Virus record (IMG/VR): IMGVR_UViG_3300044857_000313
Span: 1-64,000 of that record
From: a virus
Reading direction: 5' to 3' (one strand)
Length of the DNA stretch: 64,000 nt
Part shown: positions 6,655 through 55,947 of the stretch, piece after piece
Position numbering within the stretch: position 1 is the stretch's first letter
Layout: each line of letters starts with the position of its first letter
Made by a program: the position numbers and the translations under genes
Notes under the pieces: model-generated
Told to the model about the DNA's origin: nothing
Database searches by the model: none
What the model saw: only the letters and a program-made list of their open reading frames with translations

Positions 6655-7206
6655 CTAATGACAATCAAACCAATTATGACCAATGATACCCTCTGTATCC
6701 AACTGGACATGAAAGTTGAAATATTCCTGTGTGTCTCTCATCGCCTGTTGCGCTTCTTCACACACAATCTTTGCTATCTCTTCGGTACGACATGCAATCT
6801 GTTGCTCATCATGAATCCAAGCCATCAATGCAAAATCGCCCTCCCATCCATGTCTCAATCCTCTCGCCAATAATCGCTCCTCTGTCGTGACAATCCACTT
6901 CTTGCATATCAAAGCGCCAGCTGATTGCAAGAGCAGATTTAAGGCACTGTGAGGACTTCTTACATGTAGTTTGCGTCTGTCAAGACCATAGAGGAAATGA
7001 CGTTTCCATGTGACTTTAGGTTTCCCATGTGTGCTTTTAAAATCAATAGGATAGACAAGCGCATTTTCTACGGCCTGTCTGAGCTTCGCAATGGCAGGGA
7101 TAGCCTTATTGAATTTCTTCTTAATCTGCTTCCCCTGTCCTGCTGTACCCCCTATGATTTTTCCAATCTTTGCATCCCCTGCACCATATAAATAGGCGTA
7201 AATGTT
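6655..7206 (-). CDS. DNA polymerase (T7 gp5-like) copy A, 3' segment (from motif B IYAYLYGAG to C-terminus)
   Basis: stop-to-stop frame encodes (N)IYAYLYGAGDAKIG...HNWFDCH, collinear with residues 459-639 of intact copy B; no in-frame start, TAA at 7207-7209. Confidence 0.85.
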   Translation of the reverse strand, partial: NIYAYLYGAGDAKIGKIIGGTAGQGKQIKKKFNKAIPAIAKLRQAVENALVYPIDFKSTHGKPKVTWKRHFLYGLDRRKLHVRSPHSALNLLLQSAGALICKKWIVTTEERLLARGLRHGWEGDFALMAWIHDEQQIACRTEEIAKIVCEEAQQAMRDTQEYFNFHVQLDTEGIIGHNWFDCH

Positions 7207-7891
7207 TTAATGTTCCCATGAGTTCGCTACTCTCATAGCGTTCAAAACGAACTGCTATATGTCACCATATAGAACAGACTATCTCTTTACAGAAGCCTCT
7301 GTATCCACCGCTTCCCTCTGCTTAGAGGTACTCCCTTTCGGGATAGTCGTTACACTTTGCAAGTAGTGATAAGCATTTTGTAGCAAGGACGAATCTTCTT
7401 GAAACAGTCCTAATGCTCTATTACAATTATGACAAAGAAGGCCTCTCACATTTCCTGTTTCATGATCATGGTCAACCACAAGACACCCTGAATGATTAGT
7501 ACCCATCGGAAAATTCTCTTTACCACAAATTTTGCATACAAAGTTCTGTGACTCTGCAATTTCCAAATATCCATCTAAAGATATCCCGTAGACACGTTTG
7601 TAATAAGCATCTGCTACCCCATAGTTTTTACACTCATCTGAACAATAAAGTTCTGAGGGTGCTTTAGGGATAAATTCCTTATGGCATTTCTTACATCTCT
7701 TAGGTTTGAAATAGCCTTGTGGATACTTAGAAGGAGTTGCTGTCTGTTCTTTCTTAGGTTTATTCCAATCACGTAACAGTTTATGTAAGTATTCTTCTTT
7801 TGTCATATAATCACCTCTTGCCTTAGCACGGTATTGTCTTATTCCTAAGATGTTCACCGTTTTCAATGGATTTATAGACGCCCATTTAGTT
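7204..7891 (-). mobile_element. 688-nt intervening sequence splitting DNA polymerase A (intron-like, carries HNH gene)
   Basis: absent from copy B, where AAGACGTTT|ATCTACGC is continuous; P1-like AGACGUUU/GGGCGUCU and P10-like UAAAU/AUUUA pairings at its 5' end. Confidence 0.7.
7279..7806 (-). CDS. HNH / endonuclease VII-type homing endonuclease
   Basis: LVVDHDHETGNVRGLLCHNCNRALG plus N-terminal CxxC..CxxxC; start set at MTKEEY with GAGGTG SD (ORF open to 7866). Confidence 0.8.
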   Translation of the reverse strand: MTKEEYLHKLLRDWNKPKKEQTATPSKYPQGYFKPKRCKKCHKEFIPKAPSELYCSDECKNYGVADAYYKRVYGISLDGYLEIAESQNFVCKICGKENFPMGTNHSGCLVVDHDHETGNVRGLLCHNCNRALGLFQEDSSLLQNAYHYLQSVTTIPKGSTSKQREAVDTEASVKR

Positions 7892-9262
7892 AAACGTCTT
7901 CGCCTGATTGCGTGTTGGCAATCCTGCGGCTTTCTGATTCATCGTGTGAATATCACCATTCAAAATTGTATGGGCATATTGGCCCCCATCATACTTGTAC
8001 ATGAAGTGGGCAAGACAACGGAGTTCAAGACCACAAGCATCTATCCCTGCTTGCCACCATCCGTCAGGTACTCTAAAGAGTTCCCGACATTCCTTGCCAT
8101 ACGGACTGCCGACATGTGGTACTTGTGCGACGTTCGGTCTGGAATGAGTAGCACGACCACTAACAGCCCCATTAGGGATAACAGAACCATGGATATTCCC
8201 ATCCTTTCCAATCATAGACAACCAAGCATTATTGCCATCTGCAAGTTGCCCCAAACGCTTTTTGAGCATTAAGGACTCCTCAAGGACAGACACCATAGCT
8301 TTCACTTCATCGGGAGCTTGAGGGTCTTCCTTCATGAATTTCATGCTTTCATCATCAATCTTCAATCGACATTGTGACAAGTCAACATCATCTGCATCCG
8401 TGTCTTCCACATCATAACAATCAATGTTCGATGGAGAATAACCGTAATGCGTCCGCAACAGCCATTCAATCTGTTGTCTACTATTCGGATTAAAGTCTTT
8501 ATACTTCTGAACGGGAACCCCTGCTTTATAGCCAAGGCGTTTGTTGTCTCTTTTCGGTACGAAAATCTTATCAGGTACACGAGGTACGATCTGAATTAGT
8601 TTCGCTGTCAATACACCTGCTCTGGAACGCAAGGTAGCTTCCAATTCCTTTGCCTTTTCAAGGTCAAAAGGAAAGCCATTCTTTTCCTGTTTAGACATCA
8701 ACCATGCTACCTCATGTTCAAGCTTTATGGCCTTTGGTGCATAATCGTATGAAGCCAGCTTTTCATAGAGCTTTACCGTTACAACTACGTCCTGCTTATT
8801 GTAAGCAAGCATTTCAGGATTGTAACAAGCCCATGCATCTTCTTCCTCTCCATATGTACCCTTTAGTTCCCCTAAACGATACCCCCAAGCCTTTAGGCTA
8901 TGGGATTTATACAGCTTCGAGGGTAGCTGTTTCTTTCGGATAAGTCCTGCATCCATGTCTTCGATATGAGAATAGATGAGTCGTGACAAAACAAGGGTGT
9001 CTACTACATCCTTATGCATGTCGTGTGTAATCTCAAACCACGGAAAAAGTTTTGCCAAGGTGGGAAGGTCATAGTTAATAACATTGTGTCCACAAAGACA
9101 CGCCCCTCTTTTCCATGCATCATACAAATCATGGACACCTTGCTCTGCGTGTACATCATCATACTGCTTCATTTCCTGTGTGTCTGTATCATAGACACTC
9201 AGGCAGAACAGCTTCGTAACGTCGGCATATAAGCCGTTCGTTTCAATATCAAAGACTAACAT
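7886..9262 (-). CDS. DNA polymerase copy A, 5' segment (3'-5' exo domain to motif B ...NQAKTF)
   Basis: 458-aa ORF, MLVFDIETNGL exo motif; ends KTFN-stop exactly where copy B continues KTFIYAYLYG. Confidence 0.9.
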   Translation of the reverse strand: MLVFDIETNGLYADVTKLFCLSVYDTDTQEMKQYDDVHAEQGVHDLYDAWKRGACLCGHNVINYDLPTLAKLFPWFEITHDMHKDVVDTLVLSRLIYSHIEDMDAGLIRKKQLPSKLYKSHSLKAWGYRLGELKGTYGEEEDAWACYNPEMLAYNKQDVVVTVKLYEKLASYDYAPKAIKLEHEVAWLMSKQEKNGFPFDLEKAKELEATLRSRAGVLTAKLIQIVPRVPDKIFVPKRDNKRLGYKAGVPVQKYKDFNPNSRQQIEWLLRTHYGYSPSNIDCYDVEDTDADDVDLSQCRLKIDDESMKFMKEDPQAPDEVKAMVSVLEESLMLKKRLGQLADGNNAWLSMIGKDGNIHGSVIPNGAVSGRATHSRPNVAQVPHVGSPYGKECRELFRVPDGWWQAGIDACGLELRCLAHFMYKYDGGQYAHTILNGDIHTMNQKAAGLPTRNQAKTFN

Positions 9263-9275
9263 AGAACCATCCTTT

Positions 9276-9464
9276 CTATCGTAACTTTTCTAAATCTTCT
9301 GCCTCTGTATCAAGATTAAAAGCCTCATTACGGAGCTTACTCGCAAGCTCTCTCTTTTTATCAGCAAGCAAACTAATTTTCTTCTGTCGCTGTGCCTGTA
9401 CCTTAATGCTCCACTGATACAGCTTTCGCCACAAGGCATCATAGAATTTAATAAACCACATCAA
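9276..9464 (-). CDS. hypothetical protein (62 aa)
   Basis: ORF conserved in copy B (53423..53608). Confidence 0.5.
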   Translation of the reverse strand: MMWFIKFYDALWRKLYQWSIKVQAQRQKKISLLADKKRELASKLRNEAFNLDTEAEDLEKLR

Positions 9465-9473
9465 GACACCCCC

Positions 9474-11258
9474 TTACTTTTTTAAATGGTGGTAGAATCG
9501 TTTTCCTGCTTCCTTCTGTCTTGCTTCGGAGAAGTTGCTAATGCGTTTCAGATACCCAATAACACGAGTACCATAATCAACATCCGTGCTCCCACATTTC
9601 ACACAATGGGTTTCTGTGTCTGTATTGATGTAGCCACATTCATTGCAAATCGTACACAAGACATTGGTTGTCCAATACTGTACACCATACTTAGAGCAAA
9701 GCTTATACAAATGGACAAACTGTTCTGCACTCAACATCTGTTCAAGATTCAGATGGAGCGCCGAACCCCCATCAAGGTACTGAACAATGTCCTTTGAATA
9801 CAATTTGAGCTTATCAAGTACATTCACCTTCGTGTCTTCTACAGGGTAGAAATAACTGTTGTAACAATCACGAGGTACATAAAGACCTGCTTCCTTATCC
9901 CATTTAGCATTTTTAACACCGAGATTTTCGGCAGGAACAAACTCAGTATTGAAGCGGACTCCATACTCAGACAGAGCGGCCTTATTAGACATCGTAAGGA
10001 AAGACAACAAGGACTGTAAATAATTAAGATATTCCTTGTCTGTCACAGTACCTTTCTTATCTCTCAGGTACTCAAAGTATTCCAAGACACCATTCACACC
10101 AAGGGTCAAGAACTGCTTATCAATGTCCATGAAGCCCTGTGTGTACGCAGGGAGCAAACCTGCATCAATATAGCCTTTCAACACTTCACGATGGGCCAAC
10201 AGGTACTTATGTACTCTGTCCACTACTTCGTCAAGCTTAATACCACATTGACCGATACGGTTGATGTTCAAACTAATGACACGAGCAGAACCCGTAACAA
10301 CACCACCTGCACCCAACGTATAACTGAATGTGTTGTCGGCCAATTTATTGCGCAAACGACAGCAAGACGCAAGACTATCCACCTTGTCAGACATATAGAC
10401 AAAGAAGGAAAGACCTTGTTCCTGTTCCTTTGCTAGTGTCTGCATAAAATCATTATCCTTGAAACCACCTCTGCCATCGGTCAAGAGTGCGGCGGTGACA
10501 ACAGGGAACGTCAACAACTCTTTTTCTCGTTCCTGTCTGAACCATCGCAAGAAATGCAACTGCAACCGATAGGTGCTTTCAATGTCTACCTGTGTACCGT
10601 CTGGATAGTAGAAACCACCAAACATTTCTTTCAGGTAATCATGATCAAACACACTCACATTCCAAAAGACAGACTGGTCCCCTCGTGCGCTGGCGGGCTG
10701 ATTCAGTGCGTAGACAACGCCCTGAAATTCCTGATTGACTTCTTCAAAGTGTTTACCAAGGTAATTTTTGCCCCACTGTTTCCGTGCAAAGTAGTCAAAC
10801 ATGTGAAGGAACTCAACAGTAGCAATAGCTCCACTGAAATTACTTGCAATCTGATAAACAAGATTGACAAAGGAACCGCAAAAGCTCTGCAAGTTCTTCG
10901 GTGCTTTAGACACACCGCCTAAGCACTTCGTACCCTCCAACAAGAAGGGATACAAAGTGATACTGGCACAATAAGGTTTCAAAGATGTTTCATCATGTGT
11001 ATAGATATAATGATTTGCAAGGTCCTCTTCATAAGCCGTTGCCATGTCTTCGCCAAACATCTGAGTCAGTTTGTCTTTAACCAATTTACGGTTAATCTGA
11101 ATAGTATCTGGCTTAAATAATTCCGCTTCCAAGCCTGCAATCGTCTTCTGAGTAACATTACTGTTCGCATCTACCTTAGAGGCCGTAGCGGCATTGGAAG
11201 ACACCATATAATCATGGATGTATTTAATCTTTTCTTTTAAATCAACATTAGGTAACAT
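9474..11258 (-). CDS. nrdD: anaerobic (class III) ribonucleoside-triphosphate reductase, copy A
   Basis: C-terminal CxxC..CxxCG zinc site then glycyl-radical motif TRVIGYL; start set at MLPNVDL just after nrdG stop (ORF track extends to 11315). Confidence 0.85.
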   Translation of the reverse strand: MLPNVDLKEKIKYIHDYMVSSNAATASKVDANSNVTQKTIAGLEAELFKPDTIQINRKLVKDKLTQMFGEDMATAYEEDLANHYIYTHDETSLKPYCASITLYPFLLEGTKCLGGVSKAPKNLQSFCGSFVNLVYQIASNFSGAIATVEFLHMFDYFARKQWGKNYLGKHFEEVNQEFQGVVYALNQPASARGDQSVFWNVSVFDHDYLKEMFGGFYYPDGTQVDIESTYRLQLHFLRWFRQEREKELLTFPVVTAALLTDGRGGFKDNDFMQTLAKEQEQGLSFFVYMSDKVDSLASCCRLRNKLADNTFSYTLGAGGVVTGSARVISLNINRIGQCGIKLDEVVDRVHKYLLAHREVLKGYIDAGLLPAYTQGFMDIDKQFLTLGVNGVLEYFEYLRDKKGTVTDKEYLNYLQSLLSFLTMSNKAALSEYGVRFNTEFVPAENLGVKNAKWDKEAGLYVPRDCYNSYFYPVEDTKVNVLDKLKLYSKDIVQYLDGGSALHLNLEQMLSAEQFVHLYKLCSKYGVQYWTTNVLCTICNECGYINTDTETHCVKCGSTDVDYGTRVIGYLKRISNFSEARQKEAGKRFYHHLKK

Positions 11259-11259
11259 T

Positions 11260-11799
11260 CTACACCCTCTTCCAAAATTTGTGTGTCTCATCCAGGAAGT
11301 ATGGACGACCATCAACTAAATTATCTTGTGCGTCAAGACGATAGGTTGCCGTGATTCGATAGAACCTCTGGTTTGTCCGTGTGCTTTCAAGACCACCCAA
11401 TGTAGCAACATAAGGGCCTGTCTTCAACCAAGTACAATGCCCTTCAACTGCAATCATCTTGTCATGGTCTTCATCATCACTCCCACTGTACAAACCTGTA
11501 GGAGCAATGAAAGCCAAATCACGTAGGAGAGCGATTAAAGATTCATCTGTGATATGCTTATTATTTGTACCGCCCATTACAACAATAGCGTTTGCCCCTG
11601 CATCAACGGCGTCCTGTGCTTCTTCTAAAATATCAAGAAGGGACGTTAAGTCCACATCTTCGTTCTGTAATTCTGGACTATGACAACCAACACAATGTTG
11701 TTTGCAAGCCCCTAATTCAAGCGCATAGGCCATTTTATCAGGCAATTCGTTGAATGTAATATCTGTATTAACAACAGGGTACTTTAAAACTCTTGACAT
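11260..11799 (-). CDS. nrdG: class III RNR activating enzyme (radical SAM), copy A
   Basis: CKQHCVGC = CxxxCxxC cluster motif, directly upstream of nrdD. Confidence 0.7.
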   Translation of the reverse strand: MSRVLKYPVVNTDITFNELPDKMAYALELGACKQHCVGCHSPELQNEDVDLTSLLDILEEAQDAVDAGANAIVVMGGTNNKHITDESLIALLRDLAFIAPTGLYSGSDDEDHDKMIAVEGHCTWLKTGPYVATLGGLESTRTNQRFYRITATYRLDAQDNLVDGRPYFLDETHKFWKRV

Positions 11800-25603: not shown

Positions 25604-26414
25604 CAATCAGCCTATGCGTTCTGCTTTCCAACCCTTTGAGTGATGTCGGTTTCCTTTAGCCACTTGACGTAGATTTTGGGGTGAAAGATTATGCTCTCTG
25701 CAAAAAGCAGTAAAAGAAAAAGGCTCATACATCGTACCATCAGGTGCAATAAGCCTGAATCTTTCACCCTGTCCATAATTATGAGGAACATGCCCTTTTT
25801 GAAGAGTAGTAGGGAGACAGTCAGCACATACTGTCCCTGACTTGCGTTTTTGTAAATATTTACCACAAATAGGACAACGAACTGTTTTTCTGTCTCCCCC
25901 TGCTCTTACATTCCACCCCATATGCATTTTAGGACGTAGATTATATTCTATTGTTAATGCTTCTTCTTTTGGTAACATAGCAATTAAATCAATTTGAATA
26001 TTATCCTTACCCAGTTGTCTTAGAATTGTGCCAACAGGTCTCTTGCTACACATATGCTGACTAAGACGATAGGAAAGACTACGGCGAGTAACACCCACAT
26101 AACCTTCCTGTATATTTCTGTTTCCTACTTCATGGATATGGTACACTTTATATAATCTTGTTTTTTCTCTAAACAATAACATCACTCTCTTTTCTTTTTA
26201 GTGTTACGGTACATCGTTAGGGTACCTCACTATATTGCTATAGTGTTCAGACTATATCTTCTATCAAAAGATAGTGCGCTGTTTCCACCGAACCATTGCG
26301 GTGTACTAATAGTCGTTGAACGTTTCCTTATAAAAGGACTTCGCTGCTGATTGTCTTAGAAAGAGTTTCCAGCAATTAAGCGCATTTTTTAACGTAGGAG
26401 CAAGGACGTATTTT
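25604..26414 (-). mobile_element. group I intron-like element in terL carrying a GIY-YIG gene
   Basis: guide sequence GUCCUU-GCUCCUA (26395-26407) pairs with 3' exon AAGGAC and 5' exon UAGGGGU (U.G at splice site); intron ends in G; 229-nt ORF-free 5' part with several hairpins incl. GCAA tetraloop. Confidence 0.7.
25607..26185 (-). CDS. GIY-YIG homing endonuclease
   Basis: YKVYHI..GYVGVT..R..QH..E..GWNVRAGG plus C-terminal NUMOD-like HHSKGW. Confidence 0.8.
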   Translation of the reverse strand: MMLLFREKTRLYKVYHIHEVGNRNIQEGYVGVTRRSLSYRLSQHMCSKRPVGTILRQLGKDNIQIDLIAMLPKEEALTIEYNLRPKMHMGWNVRAGGDRKTVRCPICGKYLQKRKSGTVCADCLPTTLQKGHVPHNYGQGERFRLIAPDGTMYEPFSFTAFCREHNLSPQNLRQVAKGNRHHSKGWKAERIG

Positions 26415-27497
26415 ACCCCTACCCGATGGGTCTATAGCCATCACTGTTGTCTGATAGGGCATCGTTTCGGGACTACGGGACAGCTCACTGTAGTAATAGT
26501 CCCCTGCCATGGCTGTACAGGGAATATCAGACAAGAGCTGTTCCCTGCCTTTTGCCCATGCCCATTTGAGGCTACTTTCCTTCATATCAAGGTTAGTGAT
26601 AATCAAATCAGACACCTTCAACGGATACTTTTCAGCATCCGACAACCGAGTATTGAGCATATACTGGAGAGCAAACCCTGCTTTCCCATAAGACAAGGAA
26701 CGCTTCGCAATTTCTTCCTCATTGAATCGCAAGGGGTCTGTAGGCTTCCCTTCAAGACTAGGGTCAGCTTTCAGTTTGTTCCAAATAGAGGGAGCAAGGG
26801 AATCACCATAATTATCTTCTACCCTTGATAATTGAGGATACAAGACAGGCCAGATACGCGCAATATATCCACGGTCTTGTAAGGTGTTGTACAGACTTGA
26901 TTCAGTCTGTGGTGTACCGAGATATATGATCTGGCCGTTCGGTTTCAAGATAGCATCAAATTCCTTTACGGCCTCTGAGAGCTTATCACGCTGTTGCTGT
27001 GTTGCTGAGTTTTTCGGGACTTCTACGTCATCGGCAATTAGAATGTCTGCACGTGTCCCTGTAATCTGCCCAGTGATACCAATGGACTTTACAGAGGGGG
27101 AAATATCAGGAACGACACCCCCAACATCAAAGATATTCTGTGTGTCTAACTGCCCCTTGTCTGCAATCATGTCAGACAAGAAAGGGAGTGTCTGTATGAT
27201 ACGCTTGATAAAGCGAGCGTTCGCATCCGCTCTGTCCCCAGAGGCAGACACAATCAAAATCTTTAGCTGTCTTTCCTTCCACAATCTCCACACTACATAA
27301 GCACATGTCAAGAAGGACTTAGCGACACCACGGAACCCCTCAAGAATGATACGGTCTTTAGGGGGGTTCTGGAGATAGTTTGCAATGTCAATTTGAATGG
27401 GTGTCGGCTGTGGAAGGTCAATAGACCGCCATACAATATAGACAAAGGCCCAGAAGTGTTCACGTGCCTTCTGGACATCCGCTTCACTCCATTTCAA
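26415..27497 (-). CDS. terL: terminase large subunit, exon 1 (ATPase domain)
   Basis: Walker A-like GFRGVAKS, ILIADDVE; ORF runs 12 codons into the intron before its stop (26376). Confidence 0.85.
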
Positions 27498-43099: not shown

Positions 43100-43666
43100 T
43101 TATCTCCTTTCCAATGCACTCTGCATCCCTGTGGTCTGAAACATGTTGGAACCTGTGTCTATACAATACTGGACAATATCGGCATAAGCTCTTGATTCTT
43201 CAATCCGTAACTCCTGAGATACATTTTCGTCACCAAGGTAACGTTCCTGAAAGAAAATAGCCGCTTCTGCTGTAATGAATGTTTTGAACTCATCAGGCAA
43301 GTCCTCAAAGTCAACGGCTTCAATGATGGTAAGTTGCACCTCTTCATTGAAGGTATCTGTCTTCTCTGTAAGATTGTATAGAAAATCCCCACGTTTTACA
43401 TAGACCTCACCATTCGTCGCTGTAATCTTTATCCATGATGGATTGTATCGAATCTTTTTGCTGTTGGTGTCTGGCATAATAGTTACATTGGTCATGGTGT
43501 TGAACTGCCAGCCTTGACGCTGGATATTTCGAGACACCGTAGCTAGTAGGCTTCGTGCATTATCAACATCAATAGATTCACTCTCTGTTAAGCTATTGAC
43601 AGGAGCTTCCCCAATGCCTGAAAGAATCAGATTGATTGCGTCTAACTCTGTGGATACAAATAGCAT
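43100..43666 (-). CDS. tail tubular protein A (T7 gp11-like)
   Basis: 188-aa ORF; AINLILSGIGEAPVNSL and QRQGWQFN as in gp11. Confidence 0.8.
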   Translation of the reverse strand: MLFVSTELDAINLILSGIGEAPVNSLTESESIDVDNARSLLATVSRNIQRQGWQFNTMTNVTIMPDTNSKKIRYNPSWIKITATNGEVYVKRGDFLYNLTEKTDTFNEEVQLTIIEAVDFEDLPDEFKTFITAEAAIFFQERYLGDENVSQELRIEESRAYADIVQYCIDTGSNMFQTTGMQSALERR

Positions 43667-50199: not shown

Positions 50200-52119
50200 C
50201 TAATGACAATCAAACCAATTATGTCCAATGATACCTTCTGTATCTAATTGAATATGAAAATGAAAATATTCTTGTGTGTCTCTCATCGCCTGCTGGGCTT
50301 CTTCACACACAATCTTTGCAATTTCTTCTGTTCTACACGCAATCTGTTGCTCATCGTGTATCCACGCCATGAGTGCAAAATCGCCATCCCATCCATGTCT
50401 TAATCCTCTCGCCAATAATCGCTCCTCTGTCGTGACAATCCACTTCTTGCATATCAAAGCACCTGCTGATTGCAAGAGCAGATTTAAGGCACTGTGAGGA
50501 CTTCTTACATGTAGTTTGCGTCTGTCAAGACCATAGAGGAAATGGCGTTTCCATGTAACCTTAGGTTTCCCATGGCACTGTTTATAATCAATAGGGTAGA
50601 CAAGTGCATTTTCTACAGCCTGTCTGAGCTTCGCAATAGCAGGAATGGCCTTATTGAATTTCTTCTTAATCTGCTTTCCCTGTCCTGCTGAACCCCCTAT
50701 GATTTTACCAATCTTTGCGTCTCCTGCTCCATACAAATAAGCGTAGATAAACGTCTTCGCCTGATTGCGTGTTGGCAATCCTGCGGCTTTCTGATTCATA
50801 GTATGAATATCACCATTCAGAATCGTATGGGCATATTGGCCCCCATCATACTTATACATGAAGTGGGCAAGACAACGGAGTTCAAGACCACAAGCGTCTA
50901 TCCCTGCTTGCCACCATCCGTCAGGTACTCTAAAGAGTTCTCGACATTCCTTGCCGTACGGACTACCTACATGGGGTACTTGTGCGACGTTCGGTCTGGA
51001 ATGAGTAGCACGACCACTAACAGCCCCATTAGGGATAACAGAACCATGGATATTACCATCCTTTCCAATCATAGACAACCAAGCATTTTTACCGTCTGCG
51101 AGTTGTCCTAGACGCTTTTTGAGCATCAAGGACTCCTCAAGTACAGACACAACAGACTTCACTTCATCAGGAGCTTGAGGGTCTTCCTTCATAAATCCCA
51201 TGCTTTCATCATCAATCTTCAATCGACACTGTGACAAGTCAACATCATCCGCATCCGTGTCTTCCACATCATAGCAATCAATGTTTGAGGGTGAATAACC
51301 GTAATGTGTTCGTAATAGCCATTCAATCTGTTGTCTGCTATTTGGATTAAAGTCTTTATACTTCTGAATGGGAACCCCCGCTTTATAGCCAAGGCGTTTG
51401 TTGTCTCTTTTCGGTACGAAAATCTTATCAGGTACACGAGGTACAAGCTGAATTAATTTTGCTGTCAAGACACCTGCTCTGGCACGTAAGGTAGCTTCTA
51501 GTTCTTTTGCTTTTTCAAGGTCAAAGGGAAATCCATTCTTTTCCTGTTTAGACATCAACCATGCTACTTCATGCTCAAGCTTTATGGCTTTTGGTGCATA
51601 ATCGTATGAAGCCAGCTTTTCATAGAGCTTCACCGTTACAACTACGTCCTGCTTATTGTAAGCAAGCATTTCAGGATTGTAACAAGCCCACGCATCTTCT
51701 TCCTCTCCATATGTACCCTTTAGTTCACCTAAACGATACCCCCAAGCCTTTAGGCTATGGGATTTATACAGCTTAGAGGGGAGCTGTTTCTTTCGGATAA
51801 GTCCTGCGTCCATGTCTTCGACATGAGAATAGATGAGCCGCGACAAAACAAGGGTGTCTACTACATCCTTATGCATATCATGCGTAATCTCAAACCACGG
51901 AAAAAGTTTTGCCAAGGTGGGAAGGTCATAATTAATAACATTGTGTCCACAAAGACACACCCCTCTTTTCCATGCGTCATATAACTCATGAACACCTTGC
52001 TCTGCGTGTACATCATCGTATTGCTTCATCTGCTGTGTGTCTGTATCATAGACACTCAAGCAAAAAAGCTTCGTAACGTCGGCATATAAGCCGTTCGTTT
52101 CAATATCAAAGACTAACAT
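50200..52119 (-). CDS. DNA polymerase (T7 gp5-like), copy B, uninterrupted
   Basis: 639-aa ORF; exo motif DIETNGL, motif B NQAKTFIYAYLYGAG intact. Confidence 0.95.
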   Translation of the reverse strand: MLVFDIETNGLYADVTKLFCLSVYDTDTQQMKQYDDVHAEQGVHELYDAWKRGVCLCGHNVINYDLPTLAKLFPWFEITHDMHKDVVDTLVLSRLIYSHVEDMDAGLIRKKQLPSKLYKSHSLKAWGYRLGELKGTYGEEEDAWACYNPEMLAYNKQDVVVTVKLYEKLASYDYAPKAIKLEHEVAWLMSKQEKNGFPFDLEKAKELEATLRARAGVLTAKLIQLVPRVPDKIFVPKRDNKRLGYKAGVPIQKYKDFNPNSRQQIEWLLRTHYGYSPSNIDCYDVEDTDADDVDLSQCRLKIDDESMGFMKEDPQAPDEVKSVVSVLEESLMLKKRLGQLADGKNAWLSMIGKDGNIHGSVIPNGAVSGRATHSRPNVAQVPHVGSPYGKECRELFRVPDGWWQAGIDACGLELRCLAHFMYKYDGGQYAHTILNGDIHTMNQKAAGLPTRNQAKTFIYAYLYGAGDAKIGKIIGGSAGQGKQIKKKFNKAIPAIAKLRQAVENALVYPIDYKQCHGKPKVTWKRHFLYGLDRRKLHVRSPHSALNLLLQSAGALICKKWIVTTEERLLARGLRHGWDGDFALMAWIHDEQQIACRTEEIAKIVCEEAQQAMRDTQEYFHFHIQLDTEGIIGHNWFDCH

Positions 52120-52132
52120 AGAACCATCCTTT

Positions 52133-53377
52133 CTATCGTAACTTTTCTAAATCTTCTGCTTCCGTATCATCACGTTCAATCATGGGAATAATACCGTGCT
52201 TCTTAAGTAGCTGATATAAGAACAAGCGTCCTTTTTGTGTCCATTCAGTCTGCATTTTACAAGCAGTGCGTCCACTGGATAAAGTTAAATGGAAGGTCTT
52301 ACTATGAGTATAACCTTTATTCTGGTACTTAGCATACAGTAACCACTGTTCTCTGAGCTTATAAATAACATGTAGTGCATGAAGCATTTCATTGAATACC
52401 TTAGCACTCATCCCATAGTCTTTTGCAATTACTGTTATTGGGACAGTATTATTGCTAGACAAGATAAGGTCGGTGTAAGCGGCTTTTGGTTTTAATTCGC
52501 CGATTACCTGTTTTGCACTGGCCGCTTCCAGTTCGGCACACTTTCTTGCTTCTCGTTCAGCTTTCAGTTCCGTAGCCAATTTAATGAGGGTATCTGGATT
52601 TAGCAGAACTTCTTCAATTTTCTCGGGTGTTAAGTACGCCCCATGTTTACGGATTGCTGGGAGAACTTCATCAGCCAGAACAGCCTGGAACTTCTGTGCC
52701 GCTTCATTGCTGGCCTTGAATCCCAGCCGGTACACCATGTTTTCCGGAAGAAAATCATCTTTCCCCACAAGTGGGGAAAATCCAAATTCATGAAGATACT
52801 GGTTGACTCTGTCCCATCGGATGTATTCAACACCGTTCTTTTCTTGCGTAAATCCAAATCCTCGCGCCACGTCTTCGGCATTCAGATAGGCCGTACCATT
52901 TTCCTTATCCAAGTATCCGCGGACGTTATTGATATTTATAATTTCATGCGTGCTTCTGCTCCTTTCAAACGAGTCTGTATCCTCGCATTGGAGTGCGTCT
53001 TCATTCGTCATTGTTTCGGCGTTAGCGGTGTCCCCGCCGGTCTTTCTGATTGCCGGAAGAACCTCGCTTGTTACCCAGCGTTTAAACTTTTTGGCTGTCG
53101 GAAGCTTTGACCACATTACTAAGCTGTATAAGCCCGATTCGTTGATGAAACTTGGATACTGGTTACGACCAAGAGAGTCTTTGATGGATAGGGTAGCATT
53201 TCGTGCCCCCATCTTTTTGTCTTCATCATCCACACGGTTACGAAGTGCTTGGTTGTGATTTGTATAACCAAGAGCTGTAGCCACATCTTTACCAACAAAC
53301 CAAGGTTCGCCATTAATTAATATTGTACGTACCTTACCAAATGCCTTATTTTCAAAGATTATTAATTCGTTACTCAT
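52133..53377 (-). CDS. Bro-N / KilA-C (ANT) antirepressor-like protein, arm B only
   Basis: N-terminal IIFENKAFGKVRTILINGEPWFVGKDVATALGY (Bro-N), C-terminal ITVIAKDYGMSAKVFNEMLH..WLLYAKYQNKGY (KilA-C); start at MSNELI with AAGGAG SD. Confidence 0.75.
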   Translation of the reverse strand: MSNELIIFENKAFGKVRTILINGEPWFVGKDVATALGYTNHNQALRNRVDDEDKKMGARNATLSIKDSLGRNQYPSFINESGLYSLVMWSKLPTAKKFKRWVTSEVLPAIRKTGGDTANAETMTNEDALQCEDTDSFERSRSTHEIININNVRGYLDKENGTAYLNAEDVARGFGFTQEKNGVEYIRWDRVNQYLHEFGFSPLVGKDDFLPENMVYRLGFKASNEAAQKFQAVLADEVLPAIRKHGAYLTPEKIEEVLLNPDTLIKLATELKAEREARKCAELEAASAKQVIGELKPKAAYTDLILSSNNTVPITVIAKDYGMSAKVFNEMLHALHVIYKLREQWLLYAKYQNKGYTHSKTFHLTLSSGRTACKMQTEWTQKGRLFLYQLLKKHGIIPMIERDDTEAEDLEKLR

Positions 53378-53422
53378 ATTAAGTTCTCCTTCCAACTATA
53401 AATATTTAGACGCACTAATTGC

Positions 53423-53621: not shown

Positions 53622-55406
53622 TTACTTCTTCAAATGATGATAAAAGCGTTTCCCTGCTTCCTTCTGTCTTGCTTCGGAGAAGTTGCTAATGCGTTTCAGA
53701 TATCCGATAACACGAGTACCATAATCTACATCATTACTCCCACATTTCACACAATGATTTTCTGTGTCTGTGTTGATATAGCCACAATCATTGCAAATCG
53801 TACATAAGACATTGGTTGTCCAATACTGTACGCCATAGTCGGCACACAGCCTATACAAAAGGACAAACTGTTCTGCACTCAACATCTGTTCAAGATTCAG
53901 ATGTAGAGCCGAGCCACCATCAAGGTACTGCACAATATCCTTTGAATACAGTTTGATTTTATCGAGTACGTTCACCTTCGTGTCTTCTACAGGGTAGAAA
54001 TAACTATTGTAGCAACCACGAGGTACATAAAGACCTGCTTCCTTGTCCCATTTAGCATTTTTAACGCCGAGATTTTCGGCAGGGACAAACTCAGTATTAA
54101 AGCGGACGCCGTACTCAGACAGAGCGGCCTTATTGGACATCGTAAGGAAAGACAACAAGGACTGTAAGTAATTCGGATATTCCTTATCTGTCACTGCACC
54201 TTTCTTGTCTCTCAGGTACTCAAAGTATTCCAAGACACCATTGACACCAAGGGTCAAGAACTGTTTATCAATGTCCATAAATCCCTGTGTGTAAGCAGGG
54301 AGCAAACCTGCATCAATGTAACCTTTCAGCACTTCACGATGAGCCAACAGGTACTTATGTACTCTGTCCACTACTTCGTCAAGCTTAATCCCACACTGAC
54401 CGATGCGGTTGATGTTCAAGCTAATGACACGAGCAGAACCCGTAACAACACCACCTGCGCCCAAAGTGTAGCTGAACGTGTTATCAGCTAATTCATTGCG
54501 CAAGCGGCAACAAGACGCAAGACTATCTACCTTATCAGACATATAGACAAAGAAGGAAAGACCCCGTGCCTGTTCATCTGCCAGTGTATACATAAAAGTA
54601 TTATCTTTGAAATCACCTTTGCCATCGGTCAAGAGTGCGGCGGTGACAACAGGGAACGTCAACAATTCTTTTTTTCGTTCTTGTCTGAACCATTGCAAGA
54701 AATATCTCTGCAAACTATAGGTGCTTTCAATGTCTACCTGTGTACCGTCTGGATAGTAGAAACCCCCAAACATTTCTTTCAGGTAATCATGGTCAAACAC
54801 ACTAATGTTCCAAAATACCGACTGGTCACCTCTTGCGCTAGCTGGCTGATTCAGTGCGTAGACAACACCCTGAAATTCCTGAGCGACTTCTTCAAAATGC
54901 TTCTTGAGGTAATCTTTGCCCCACTGTTTGCGTGCAAAGTAATCAAACATATGGAGAAACTCAACGGTAGCAATAGCACCACTAAAATTACTTGCAATCT
55001 GATAAACAAGATTGACAAATGAGCCGCAAAAACTCTGCAAGTTCTTGGGTGCTTTAGACACACCACCTAAACACTTCGTACCTTCCAACAAGAAGGGATA
55101 CAAAGTGATACTGGCACAATAAGGCTTCAAAGATGTTTCATCATGTGTATAGATATAATGATTTGCAAGGTCATCTTCATACGCCTTTGCCATATCTTCA
55201 CCAAACATCTGAGTCAGTTTGTCTTTAACCAACTTACGATTAATCTGGATAGTGTCTGGTTTAAATAATTCAGCTTCCAAGCCTGCAATCGTCTTCTGAG
55301 TAACATTACTGTTCGCATCTACCTTAGATGCCGTAGCGGCATTGGGAGACACCATATAATCATGGATGTACTTAATCTTTTCTTTTAAATCAACCTTTGG
55401 TAACAT
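53622..55406 (-). CDS. nrdD: anaerobic ribonucleotide reductase, copy B
   Basis: homolog of 9474..11258; start aligned at MLPKVDL. Confidence 0.85.
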   Translation of the reverse strand: MLPKVDLKEKIKYIHDYMVSPNAATASKVDANSNVTQKTIAGLEAELFKPDTIQINRKLVKDKLTQMFGEDMAKAYEDDLANHYIYTHDETSLKPYCASITLYPFLLEGTKCLGGVSKAPKNLQSFCGSFVNLVYQIASNFSGAIATVEFLHMFDYFARKQWGKDYLKKHFEEVAQEFQGVVYALNQPASARGDQSVFWNISVFDHDYLKEMFGGFYYPDGTQVDIESTYSLQRYFLQWFRQERKKELLTFPVVTAALLTDGKGDFKDNTFMYTLADEQARGLSFFVYMSDKVDSLASCCRLRNELADNTFSYTLGAGGVVTGSARVISLNINRIGQCGIKLDEVVDRVHKYLLAHREVLKGYIDAGLLPAYTQGFMDIDKQFLTLGVNGVLEYFEYLRDKKGAVTDKEYPNYLQSLLSFLTMSNKAALSEYGVRFNTEFVPAENLGVKNAKWDKEAGLYVPRGCYNSYFYPVEDTKVNVLDKIKLYSKDIVQYLDGGSALHLNLEQMLSAEQFVLLYRLCADYGVQYWTTNVLCTICNDCGYINTDTENHCVKCGSNDVDYGTRVIGYLKRISNFSEARQKEAGKRFYHHLKK

Positions 55407-55947
55407 TCTCCACCTTCTTCCAAAATTTGTGTGTCTCATCCAAAAAGCAAGGCTGAACAAACACCACATTGTCATTTTTATCTAAACGGTAAGACTGCGA
55501 GATGTAGTAAAAGCGTTGATTTGTCCGAGGACTTTCAAGGCCACCTAAAGTCTCAACATAGGGGCCTGTCTTCAGCCAAGTACAATGCCCTTCAACTGCA
55601 ATCATCTTGTCATGTTCTTCATCATCACTCCCACTATACAGCCCTGTAGGAGCAATAAAGGACAAATCACTGAGGAGAGCGATTAAAGATTCATCTGTGA
55701 TATGCTTATTATTTGTACCACCCATTACAACAATAGCGTTTGCCCCTGCATCAATGGCGTCCTGTGCTTCTTCTAAAACATCAATAAGGGGCGTTAAGGG
55801 TACATCTTCTTTCTGTAATTCTGGACTGTGACAGCCAACACAATGCTGTTTGCAAGCCCCTAATTCAATCGCATAGGCCAGTTTATCAGGCAATTCGTTG
55901 AATGTAATATCTGTATTAACAACAGGGTACTTTAAAACTCTTGACAT
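55390..55947 (-). CDS. nrdG: class III RNR activase, copy B
   Basis: homolog of 11260..11799 with a different C-terminal tail. Confidence 0.7.
   Translation of the reverse strand: MSRVLKYPVVNTDITFNELPDKLAYAIELGACKQHCVGCHSPELQKEDVPLTPLIDVLEEAQDAIDAGANAIVVMGGTNNKHITDESLIALLSDLSFIAPTGLYSGSDDEEHDKMIAVEGHCTWLKTGPYVETLGGLESPRTNQRFYYISQSYRLDKNDNVVFVQPCFLDETHKFWKKVENVTKG

Follow-up and report, generated by a model that had tools for sequence, protein, structure and literature searches.

We describe here a 688-nucleotide (nt) insert in a DNA polymerase gene of an uncultured T7-like phage, found on the minus strand of a 64,000-nt stretch of DNA (positions 1 to 64,000 of the IMG/VR virus record IMGVR_UViG_3300044857_000313), the whole of which is called the window below. 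The insert, 5'-UAACUAAAUGGG...GAACAUUAAAA-3' (7205-7892, minus strand), is very probably a mobile self-splicing group I intron of subgroup IA2 that carries a homing nuclease gene, ends in A and is predicted to be removed from the transcript. This assignment is based on a match to the Rfam family RF00028, on natural variants without an open reading frame (ORF), on covariation, and on intron-less alleles of the same gene. An HNH-bearing group I intron in a phage polymerase is an element of a familiar kind; the unusual part is the conserved terminal A.

The polymerase gene occurs twice in the window. Copy B (50200-52119, minus strand) is uninterrupted in the ORF listing, encodes 639 amino acids and reads ..NQAKTFIYAYLYGAG... 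A Pfam search matched its product to DNA_pol_A and to an RNase H-like exonuclease domain, and it is an intact family A DNA polymerase. In copy A, the ORF at 7886-9262 (minus strand) terminates as ..NQAKTFN*, two codons into the insert, and the polymerase frame reopens as *NIYAYLYGAG.. directly behind a TAA at 7209-7207; the next start codon in this frame, a TTG at 6930, comes only 91 codons before the end of the gene. The two copies are approximately 92-94% identical on both flanks of the insert, and their alignment gives the insert length of 688 nt. The intact copy B, the stop in copy A, the reopened frame behind a TAA, the insert length and an HNH/Endonuclease VII-type ORF in another frame had been reported in a preliminary description of this DNA, and they were reproduced here. 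From the ORF listing, relatives of the insert that end in G and intron-less alleles, exon 1 (7893-9262, minus strand) was assigned codons 1-456 and the first two bases of Phe457, ending in ..AAG ACG UU. Exon 2 (6655-7204, minus strand, stop included), placed from its sequence and from selection, begins C AUU UAC GCC.., that is, with the third base of Phe457 followed by IYAYLYGAG... Joined, the exons amount to 1920 nt, or 639 codons and a stop. Within motif B (the O-helix), the insertion point lies between Phe457 and Ile458. In two intron-bearing alleles that were compared, exon 2 shows 65.8 synonymous versus 14.2 nonsynonymous differences, a sign of strong purifying selection, and among such alleles its opening codons vary at third positions only (ATT TAC/TAT GCC/GCA/GCT), hence they are translated. 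The correct annotation of copy A would be join(9262..7893, 7204..6655) on the minus strand, not a broken polymerase.

The observed features are far beyond chance: over its whole length, the insert shares 65-68% nucleotide identity with annotated introns, and it matches the RF00028 core. A permissive Rfam scan, a covariance-model search of the kind that the preliminary description had suggested, yielded one meaningful match, RF00028 at 7429-7255 (31.7 bits, E 1.4e-5; curated threshold 50 bits), and this match contains a textbook J8/7-P7' (AAGAGAUAGUC), P7 (GACUAU) and P9. Searching viral contigs with the protein of copy B gave 73 loci, and tblastn revealed that polymerases of this phage group are interrupted at amino acids 457/458, which is the position of our insert, at 462/463 and at ~588. 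The inserts at 457/458 are 688, 259, 258 and 237 nt long, and a 323-nt form was found in a metagenome contig. The natural variants L045, L040 and L017, which lack the ORF, score 73.9, 68.5 and 69.5 bits on RF00028; such forms are 237-259 nt long, and the sequence that remains in them is nearly identical to the window intron. For the covariation analysis nine cores were aligned with the P6 extension removed: four from the lineage of the window intron (the terminal-A lineage), three from other lineages at the same site, one from Klebsiella phage IME184 and one from an intron at site 462/463. In this alignment 96.8% of the cells were paired and 28 of the 68 pairs had changed on both sides; none of 500 shuffles reached the observed pairing values, and slid controls were 35-44% paired. 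The best support was obtained for P3, P7.2, P9 and P9.2. The predicted fold comprises P1 and P3-P9 with the P3/P7 pseudoknot, and it is backed by compensatory changes.

The elements of this fold, all on the minus strand, can be located as follows. P1 is formed by the exon strand AGACGUU (7893-7899; covariation helix 1) and the internal guide sequence GGGCGUCU (7876-7883; located from the sequence and the RF00028 alignment), the full pairing being AGACGUU(U)/GGGCGUCU; the wobble U7893.G7882 within AGACGUU/GGCGUCU marks the 5' splice site and is conserved in relatives. G7883 would pair first with intron U7892 and later with exon-2 C7204, as part of P10, in which UAAAUG (7883-7888) and exon-2 CAUUUA (7204-7199) make six Watson-Crick pairs. 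P2 is absent. The 5' strand of P3, AUCCAUUG (7864-7871), pairs with CGGUGGAU (7303-7310), with four pairs changed on both sides (alignment and covariation helix 2), and P4 (ACGGUG/UACCGU; covariation helices 3 and 4 with P5), together with the hairpin P5 that it encloses (UCUUA-GGAA-UAAGA), occupies 7828-7860. The guide, the pairing with exon 2 and this hairpin had all been pointed out previously, and each has its place in the fold as P1, P10 and P5. The 5' strands of P6, P6a and P6b (GCUAAG GCAAG AGGUGAU, 7810-7827) were positioned from the alignment with ORF-less L045 and from the ORF deletion points in the variants, and the 3' strands of P6b, P6a and P6 (AUCACU A CUUGC AAAGUG, 7353-7370) from the ORF-less variant alignment. 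P7 consists of GACUAU (7343-7348; RF00028 and covariation helix 6) and AUAGUC (7277-7282; RF00028), the latter preceded by J8/7 AAAGAG, so that J8/7-P7' reads AAAGAGAUAGUC; the guanosine-binding pair is G7348-C7277, invariant in nine of nine aligned introns, the terminal-A lineage included. P7.1 (CCCGAAAGGG) and P7.2 (CCUCUAAGCAGAGG) with the linker AGUA occupy 7315-7342 (covariation helices 7 and 8, with compensatory changes). Since P7.1 and P7.2 between P7 and P3', linked by G-U-A, define subgroup IA2 (PMC3428280), the insert belongs in this subgroup. P8 is the hairpin ACAGA-GGCU-UCUGU (7289-7302; covariation helices 9 and 10), and P9 the hairpin UAUAU-GGUGAC-AUAUA (7256-7271; covariation helix 12, three pairs changed on both sides). 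Finally, P9.0 (UGUUC, 7276-7272, with GAACA, 7215-7211; whole region 7211-7276) encloses P9, P9.1 (7252-7240) and P9.2 (7238-7216), in agreement with covariation helices 11, 13 and 14; six of the seven pairs of P9.2 are compensatory, and P9.0 reads UAUUC/GAAUA in L015.

To locate the 3' end, all pairs of splice sites from -45 to +45 nt around the 5' junction and from -150 to +60 nt around the 3' junction were enumerated. Exactly three registers restore AKTFIYAYLYG (UU|..A|C, UUU|..C|A and UUUA|..A|U), none of them with a terminal G, and within the enumerated range no terminal-G pair keeps the spacing of motif B. The nearest terminal-G options were rejected, as they would yield AKTSYLYG, AKTFTYLYG or AKTFNSYLYG and break the invariant K-x3-Y-x3-YG register of the O-helix; by reasoning alone, we also discarded splicing after CAUGGG| followed by a frameshift across UUAAAAC, which would lengthen the O-helix by additional residues and depends on a +1 shift that nothing supports. 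Owing to the in-frame TAA at 7209-7207, no 3' splice site can lie upstream of it. The earlier remark that the insert does not end in the canonical G is therefore upheld, whereas the C then taken as its last base and the uniqueness of the in-frame junction are not, given the three registers, of which the one ending in A7205 is favoured.

The choice among the registers comes from homology. At the same site, the tails of relatives are GAACACUAAGG|U in Yersinia phage Berlin, GAACAAAAAG|U in L047, GAACAUAAAUG|U in L149 and GAACAUAAGG|U in Klebsiella phage RCIP0053, and the window tail GAACAUUAAAA|C aligns with A beneath their G and C beneath their +1 U. As these other lineages end in G with exon 2 starting with U, they must be spliced after the second U of ACGUUU. 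The intron-less alleles L006, L007, L011 and L022, whose flanks are close to those of the intron-bearing alleles, read ACGTTCATTTA, and the 90-nt downstream flank of L006 is identical to that of L045; compared with these alleles, the inserted segment is UAAC...UUAAAA, unambiguously. Taken together, the homologous tails and the intron-less alleles set the intron at 7892-7205, and its 3'-terminal (omega) nucleotide is most likely A7205, not C; every relative examined has G at this position. In this register the ligated codons would be ACG UUC AUU UAC, with the junction ..ACGUUCAUUUAC.. / ..GCGAAGACGUUCAUUUACGCC... The empty site of copy B, between 50750 and 50749 on the minus strand (..AAGACGTT^TATCTAC..), which had been proposed as the reference, is usable as such, but it differs at +1 and +4 (TTT ATC versus TTC ATT), and alleles of the L006 type define the boundaries better. 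Thus the insert lacks the 3'-terminal guanosine (omega G) by which group I introns are recognised, while the other group I properties tested are present; because one natural exception has been published, we still class the element as a group I intron, as a variant. The intron-less alleles fall into two classes, TTT ATC (including copy B, 50744-50760) and TTC ATT, and the latter (L006, L007, L011 and L022) look like precise intron loss or a cleavage-resistant site. Copies A and B also differ at several synonymous positions of exon 2 close to the junction, the pattern that a co-conversion tract would leave.

The terminal A is shared by the whole lineage. The tail is identical in 12 of the 12 other contigs found, which represent five intron lengths (237, 258, 259, 323 and 688 nt) and derive from IMG 3300045988, 3300014206/Ga0172377, three ENA assemblies and two ERZ assemblies. 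When the viral and metagenome collections were scanned with the P9.2/P9.0 pattern and the tail left free, all 13 matches (12 distinct contigs) had UUAAAAC, and no terminal-G version of the lineage was found in these collections; L203-L205, which also matched the tail pattern, were dismissed as chance matches in an unrelated coding gene. The introns of the lineage differ at up to 46 of 688 positions (divergence up to 6.7%), including a compensatory change in P7.1 (CCC/GGG to UCC/GGA) and G.U/A-U and U-A/U.G switches in P9.1 and P9.2. Deletions of at least four different extents have affected the ORF, with core and tail left intact. The introns at sites 462/463 and ~588 in the same phage group end in G. 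Such a pattern is what would be expected of an intron that still needs to be removed accurately, and not of a recent disabling mutation; the active-looking nuclease and the repeated loss of its ORF point to long-term persistence.

The ORF within the insert spans 7279-7866 on the minus strand, with an upstream TTG at 7866 and a likely ATG start at 7806, so that the gene (7279-7806) would encode an Endonuclease VII/HNH homing endonuclease of 175 amino acids, as assigned by Pfam PF02945 (Endonuclease_7; 70.4 bits versus a cutoff of 23.6, E 1.2e-19) and PHROG endonuclease VII. The product also matches the solved structures of Hpy99I and T4 endonuclease VII, its motifs DHDH..GNVRGLLCHNCN are intact, and it is 60% identical to the protein of the Berlin intron ORF. 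The ATG lies in the P6b loop, the ribosome-binding site AGAGGUGA within the strands of the P6a/P6b stem, and the stop codon UAG in J8/7-P7'. Within the terminal-A lineage the gene is under purifying selection: 25 changes are synonymous and 13 nonsynonymous, and the ratio of nonsynonymous to synonymous polymorphism (pN/pS) over codons 1-149 is 0.05-0.13. The last 26 codons, which overlap the ribozyme core (P6b'-P8), are without protein-level constraint, consistent with their being simply translated core sequence. That no more than about 160 nt remain outside the ORF had been considered atypical; with the ORF in the P6b loop and its last 26 codons overlapping the core, as in Pf-WMP3, it is normal. 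Presumably the nuclease acts on intron-less alleles, copy B among them, by nicking or cutting the DNA; the candidate targets are AAGACGTTTATCTACGCTTATTTG in copy B and AAGACGTTCATTTATGCC in alleles of the L006 type.

A blastn search of deposited phages related the whole insert, at the identity given above, to DNA polymerase introns of Yersinia phages (Berlin, Yep-phi, Yepe2, vB_YpP_T3 and many Y. pestis phages) and Klebsiella phages. According to its annotation, the Berlin polymerase is a join of two pieces that flank an 'endonuclease VII' gene, and the insertion point is ..AAGACGUU|UAACACAAUGGGCGUCU...ACUAAGG|UAUCUACGG. To judge from these sequences, Berlin and its relatives together with Klebsiella phage RCIP0053, all Autographiviridae, carry the true homologues at the exact position in motif B: they share with the window the insertion point (..AAGACGUU | U/C AUx UAC..), an IA2 core without P2 and an Endonuclease VII-type ORF in the P6 extension. 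In contrast to the window intron, in which the last base is A, exon 2 starts with C and P10 has six base pairs (bp), the Berlin-type introns end in G, are followed by U and have a P10 of approximately 3 bp; their ORF stops at a UAA in J6/7, whereas that of the window reads through P7-P8. The host phage is only distantly related to the hosts of the Berlin-type introns, as its best polymerase match to deposited phages is below 50% amino acid identity. P9.1 (7240-7252) differs as well: it is GUUCGUUUUGAAC, with the loop GUUUU, in the terminal-A lineage, GUUC-AUAAGA-GAAC in six of the seven terminal-G relatives examined, and GUUC-UAUAA-GAAC in RCIP0053. The introns of IME184 and of site 462/463 are members of this IA2 family too and share its P4-P5, J6/7-P7, P7.1 and P9.1 sequences, but they lie 9 and 15 nt downstream in motif B, respectively, have another guide sequence and end in G.

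The self-splicing introns of PhiI/W31 (nuclease I-TslI) and Pf-WMP3 (I-PfoP3I) resemble that of the window in being IA2 introns of T7-like phage polymerase genes with an HNH nuclease in P6a, a ribosome-binding site in a stem and an ORF that contributes to core helices (PMC3428280). In Pf-WMP3 P2 is absent and the ORF starts in P6a and spans P7, and P6a also holds the nuclease genes of PhiI/W31; the insertion sites are, however, 881 (motif C) for PhiI/W31 and 674 for SPO1 and Pf-WMP3 (PMC3428280), whereas the window intron lies in motif B, and the Pf-WMP3 intron is described with a terminal G. The comparison with PhiI/W31 and SPO1 made in the preliminary description is thus justified as far as family relationship is concerned, but neither is the counterpart of this insertion, the homologues being of the Berlin type. 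Relatives of the window phage carry a separate intron in motif C, ending in G; this site, the PhiI/W31 position, is empty in both window copies. Polymerases of the group hold up to three group I introns per gene, with two sites in motif B 15 nt apart and the third in motif C (..AWVH|DEQ..). Introns were found at site 462/463 in L012-L015, L024, L043, L044, L050-L052 and L074, and at site ~588 in L008, L013, L014, L017, L023, L040 and L042; both window copies are empty at these two sites.

A natural intron with the same terminal base is reportedly Cbu.L1917 of the Coxiella burnetii 23S rRNA, which is said to end in A, to self-splice and to belong to subgroup IB2. According to the title under which it was reported, it 'lacks the canonical omegaG' (Raghavan et al. 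2007, J Bacteriol 189:6572; cited in PMC11270868). Unlike the window intron, it is found in a bacterial rRNA, a structural RNA, of a single species and has no ORF. A full-text literature search found no further terminal-A introns beyond that of Coxiella.

The following course of splicing may be proposed. The intron would be transcribed inside the polymerase mRNA, and the RNA would fold into P1, P3-P9, P7.1/P7.2, P9.0, P9.1 and P9.2. A free guanosine, held by the G-C pair of P7, which is unchanged, would attack after U7893, which is in the U.G wobble with G7882; the freed exon 1 would then attack the A7205-C7204 bond, positioned by the 5-bp P9.0 and the unusually long 6-bp P10, and the joined exons, reading ACG UUC AUU UAC, would restore the 639-amino-acid polymerase. 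Mobility would result from nicking or cleavage of intron-less alleles such as copy B by the nuclease, followed by repair that copies the intron in. The G-C pair of P7, J6/7 and J8/7 are identical to those of terminal-G relatives, and the features specific to the lineage are the terminal A, the altered P9.1 loop and the changes that extend P10. These last are C for U at exon-2 +1 and UAAAU for UACAU or CACAAU beside the guide sequence, through which P10 has grown from the 0-3 bp of terminal-G relatives to six Watson-Crick pairs in the terminal-A lineage. As a hypothesis, P10 and P9.0 may hold the 3' splice site in place with no need for a terminal G to dock. That the whole phage lineage ligates its exons with a 3'-terminal adenosine, keeping the standard G-C guanosine site and fixing the 3' site by P10 and P9.0, we regard as somewhat more probable than the opposite.

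Several points weigh against our interpretation. The window's own intron scores under the Rfam threshold, because a 430-nt ORF interrupts P6b. A single large dataset, IMG 3300045988, supplied most contigs of the lineage, although the intron is present in at least five further assemblies. Splicing is inferred from sequence, and A is preferred to C on grounds of homology and parsimony. In the Tetrahymena ribozyme, a change of the terminal G to A is said to impair ligation strongly unless the P7 pair is changed as well (work attributed to Price & Cech, 1988, and Been & Perrotta, 1991); here the P7 pair is unchanged, so that efficient splicing is not guaranteed from first principles.

Other explanations were weighed against splicing after A7205. 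The same intron might be cut in the register favoured by the preliminary description, with the 5' site after UUU (7892), the terminal base C7204 and the ligated codons ACG UUU AUU UAC (junction ACGUUUAUUUAC). This register restores the exact protein too and gives a continuous 8-bp P1 with a 5-bp P10 (AUUUA/UAAAU), and against copy B (TTT ATC) its boundary is indistinguishable from ours; it is nonetheless unlikely, because all terminal-G relatives at the site must splice after the second U, the tail alignment sets A under their G and C under their +1 U, and the intron-less alleles with matching flanks read TTC ATT, not TTT ATT. The two parts of the earlier suggestion, a related but unusual group I intron or a polymerase expressed as two chains, fared differently: the former is retained, and the latter, an N-terminal polypeptide of 458 and a C-terminal one of 181 amino acids assembling without splicing, is improbable in the extreme. 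Exon 1 does end in a stop (..TFN*) two codons into the insert, and split but functional genes, such as those for gp43 of the T4-like phage Aeh1 and for NrdA, occur in phages. However, from the TAA at 7209-7207 to the TTG at 6930 the polymerase frame contains neither ATG, GTG nor TTG, a ribosome-binding site is missing as well, and the break would fall inside the O-helix, between Phe and Ile of K-T-F-I-Y. Moreover, the insert is a complete ribozyme with covariation support, and ORF-less forms of 237-259 nt are kept at the same spot, which is sensible only if the RNA is removed.

Somewhat more serious, but still quite improbable, is the possibility that loss of the terminal G has left the intron (nearly) splicing-defective and the polymerase a pseudogene, in defective or helper-dependent genomes or in a mixed-strain assembly. 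The window is indeed an odd tandem of two genome copies (92% identical), one with an intact polymerase, and the terminal G is normally needed for exon ligation (PMC3984707). Against this, the same tail occurs in 12 other contigs from several assemblies; no viral contig with this allele exceeds 45.5 kb, about the length of a single genome; purifying selection acts on the nuclease gene and, strongly, on exon 2; the ribozyme stems keep their pairing through compensatory changes within the lineage; and the ORF has been lost several times with core and tail intact. In addition, a natural intron without a terminal G is on record in Coxiella, as a title listed in PMC11270868 states. Splicing at A7205 remains our preferred explanation.

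Canonically, exon ligation requires the terminal G (PMC3984707). Group I introns are commonly defined by this base, and gene-mapping software places splice sites by it; annotation that requires it would misplace or miss introns such as this one. If the window intron splices efficiently, P10 and P9.0 evidently suffice for the second step, and the intron would be, to the best of our knowledge, only the second natural example, after that in Coxiella rRNA, and the first from a protein-coding gene of a phage. In that case, the terminal-G sisters at the same codon and the ORF-less forms of 237-259 nt would provide a comparative system for a G-independent second step.

The best matches of the polymerase of the host phage, all below 50% amino acid identity, are to human faecal phage sequences and Ralstonia phages, and megablast against deposited phages found no close cultured relative of the locus. 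The window comprises approximately 1.5 tandem copies of a ~43.5-kb T7-like genome (period ~43,555; copy B starts near 43,555), which are 84-94% identical, as two strains placed head to tail; the tandem is more likely an artefact of assembly or concatenation than one physical molecule. Among the related contigs fetched, none was identical to either copy. The gene adjoining the polymerase in both copies (9474-11315 and 53622-55475, minus strand) encodes an anaerobic ribonucleotide reductase, NrdD (Pfam NRDD, E 1e-98), which is consistent with life in an anaerobic environment, for instance the gut. In copy B alone, a gene for a 420-amino-acid antirepressor-like protein with Bro-N and ANT/KilAC domains (52133-53395, minus strand) separates the polymerase from nrdD; in copy A a short ORF at 9276-9464 lies next to the polymerase end at 9262 and the Bro-N gene is missing. 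A second group I intron of the window, at 26228-26465 (minus strand), scores 78.7 bits on RF00028, above the threshold, and interrupts the terminase large-subunit gene (phrog_38, E 1e-79), with ORFs at 26376-27497 and 25607-26185; the ORF after this intron has a weak match to an HNH endonuclease (phrog_2081).

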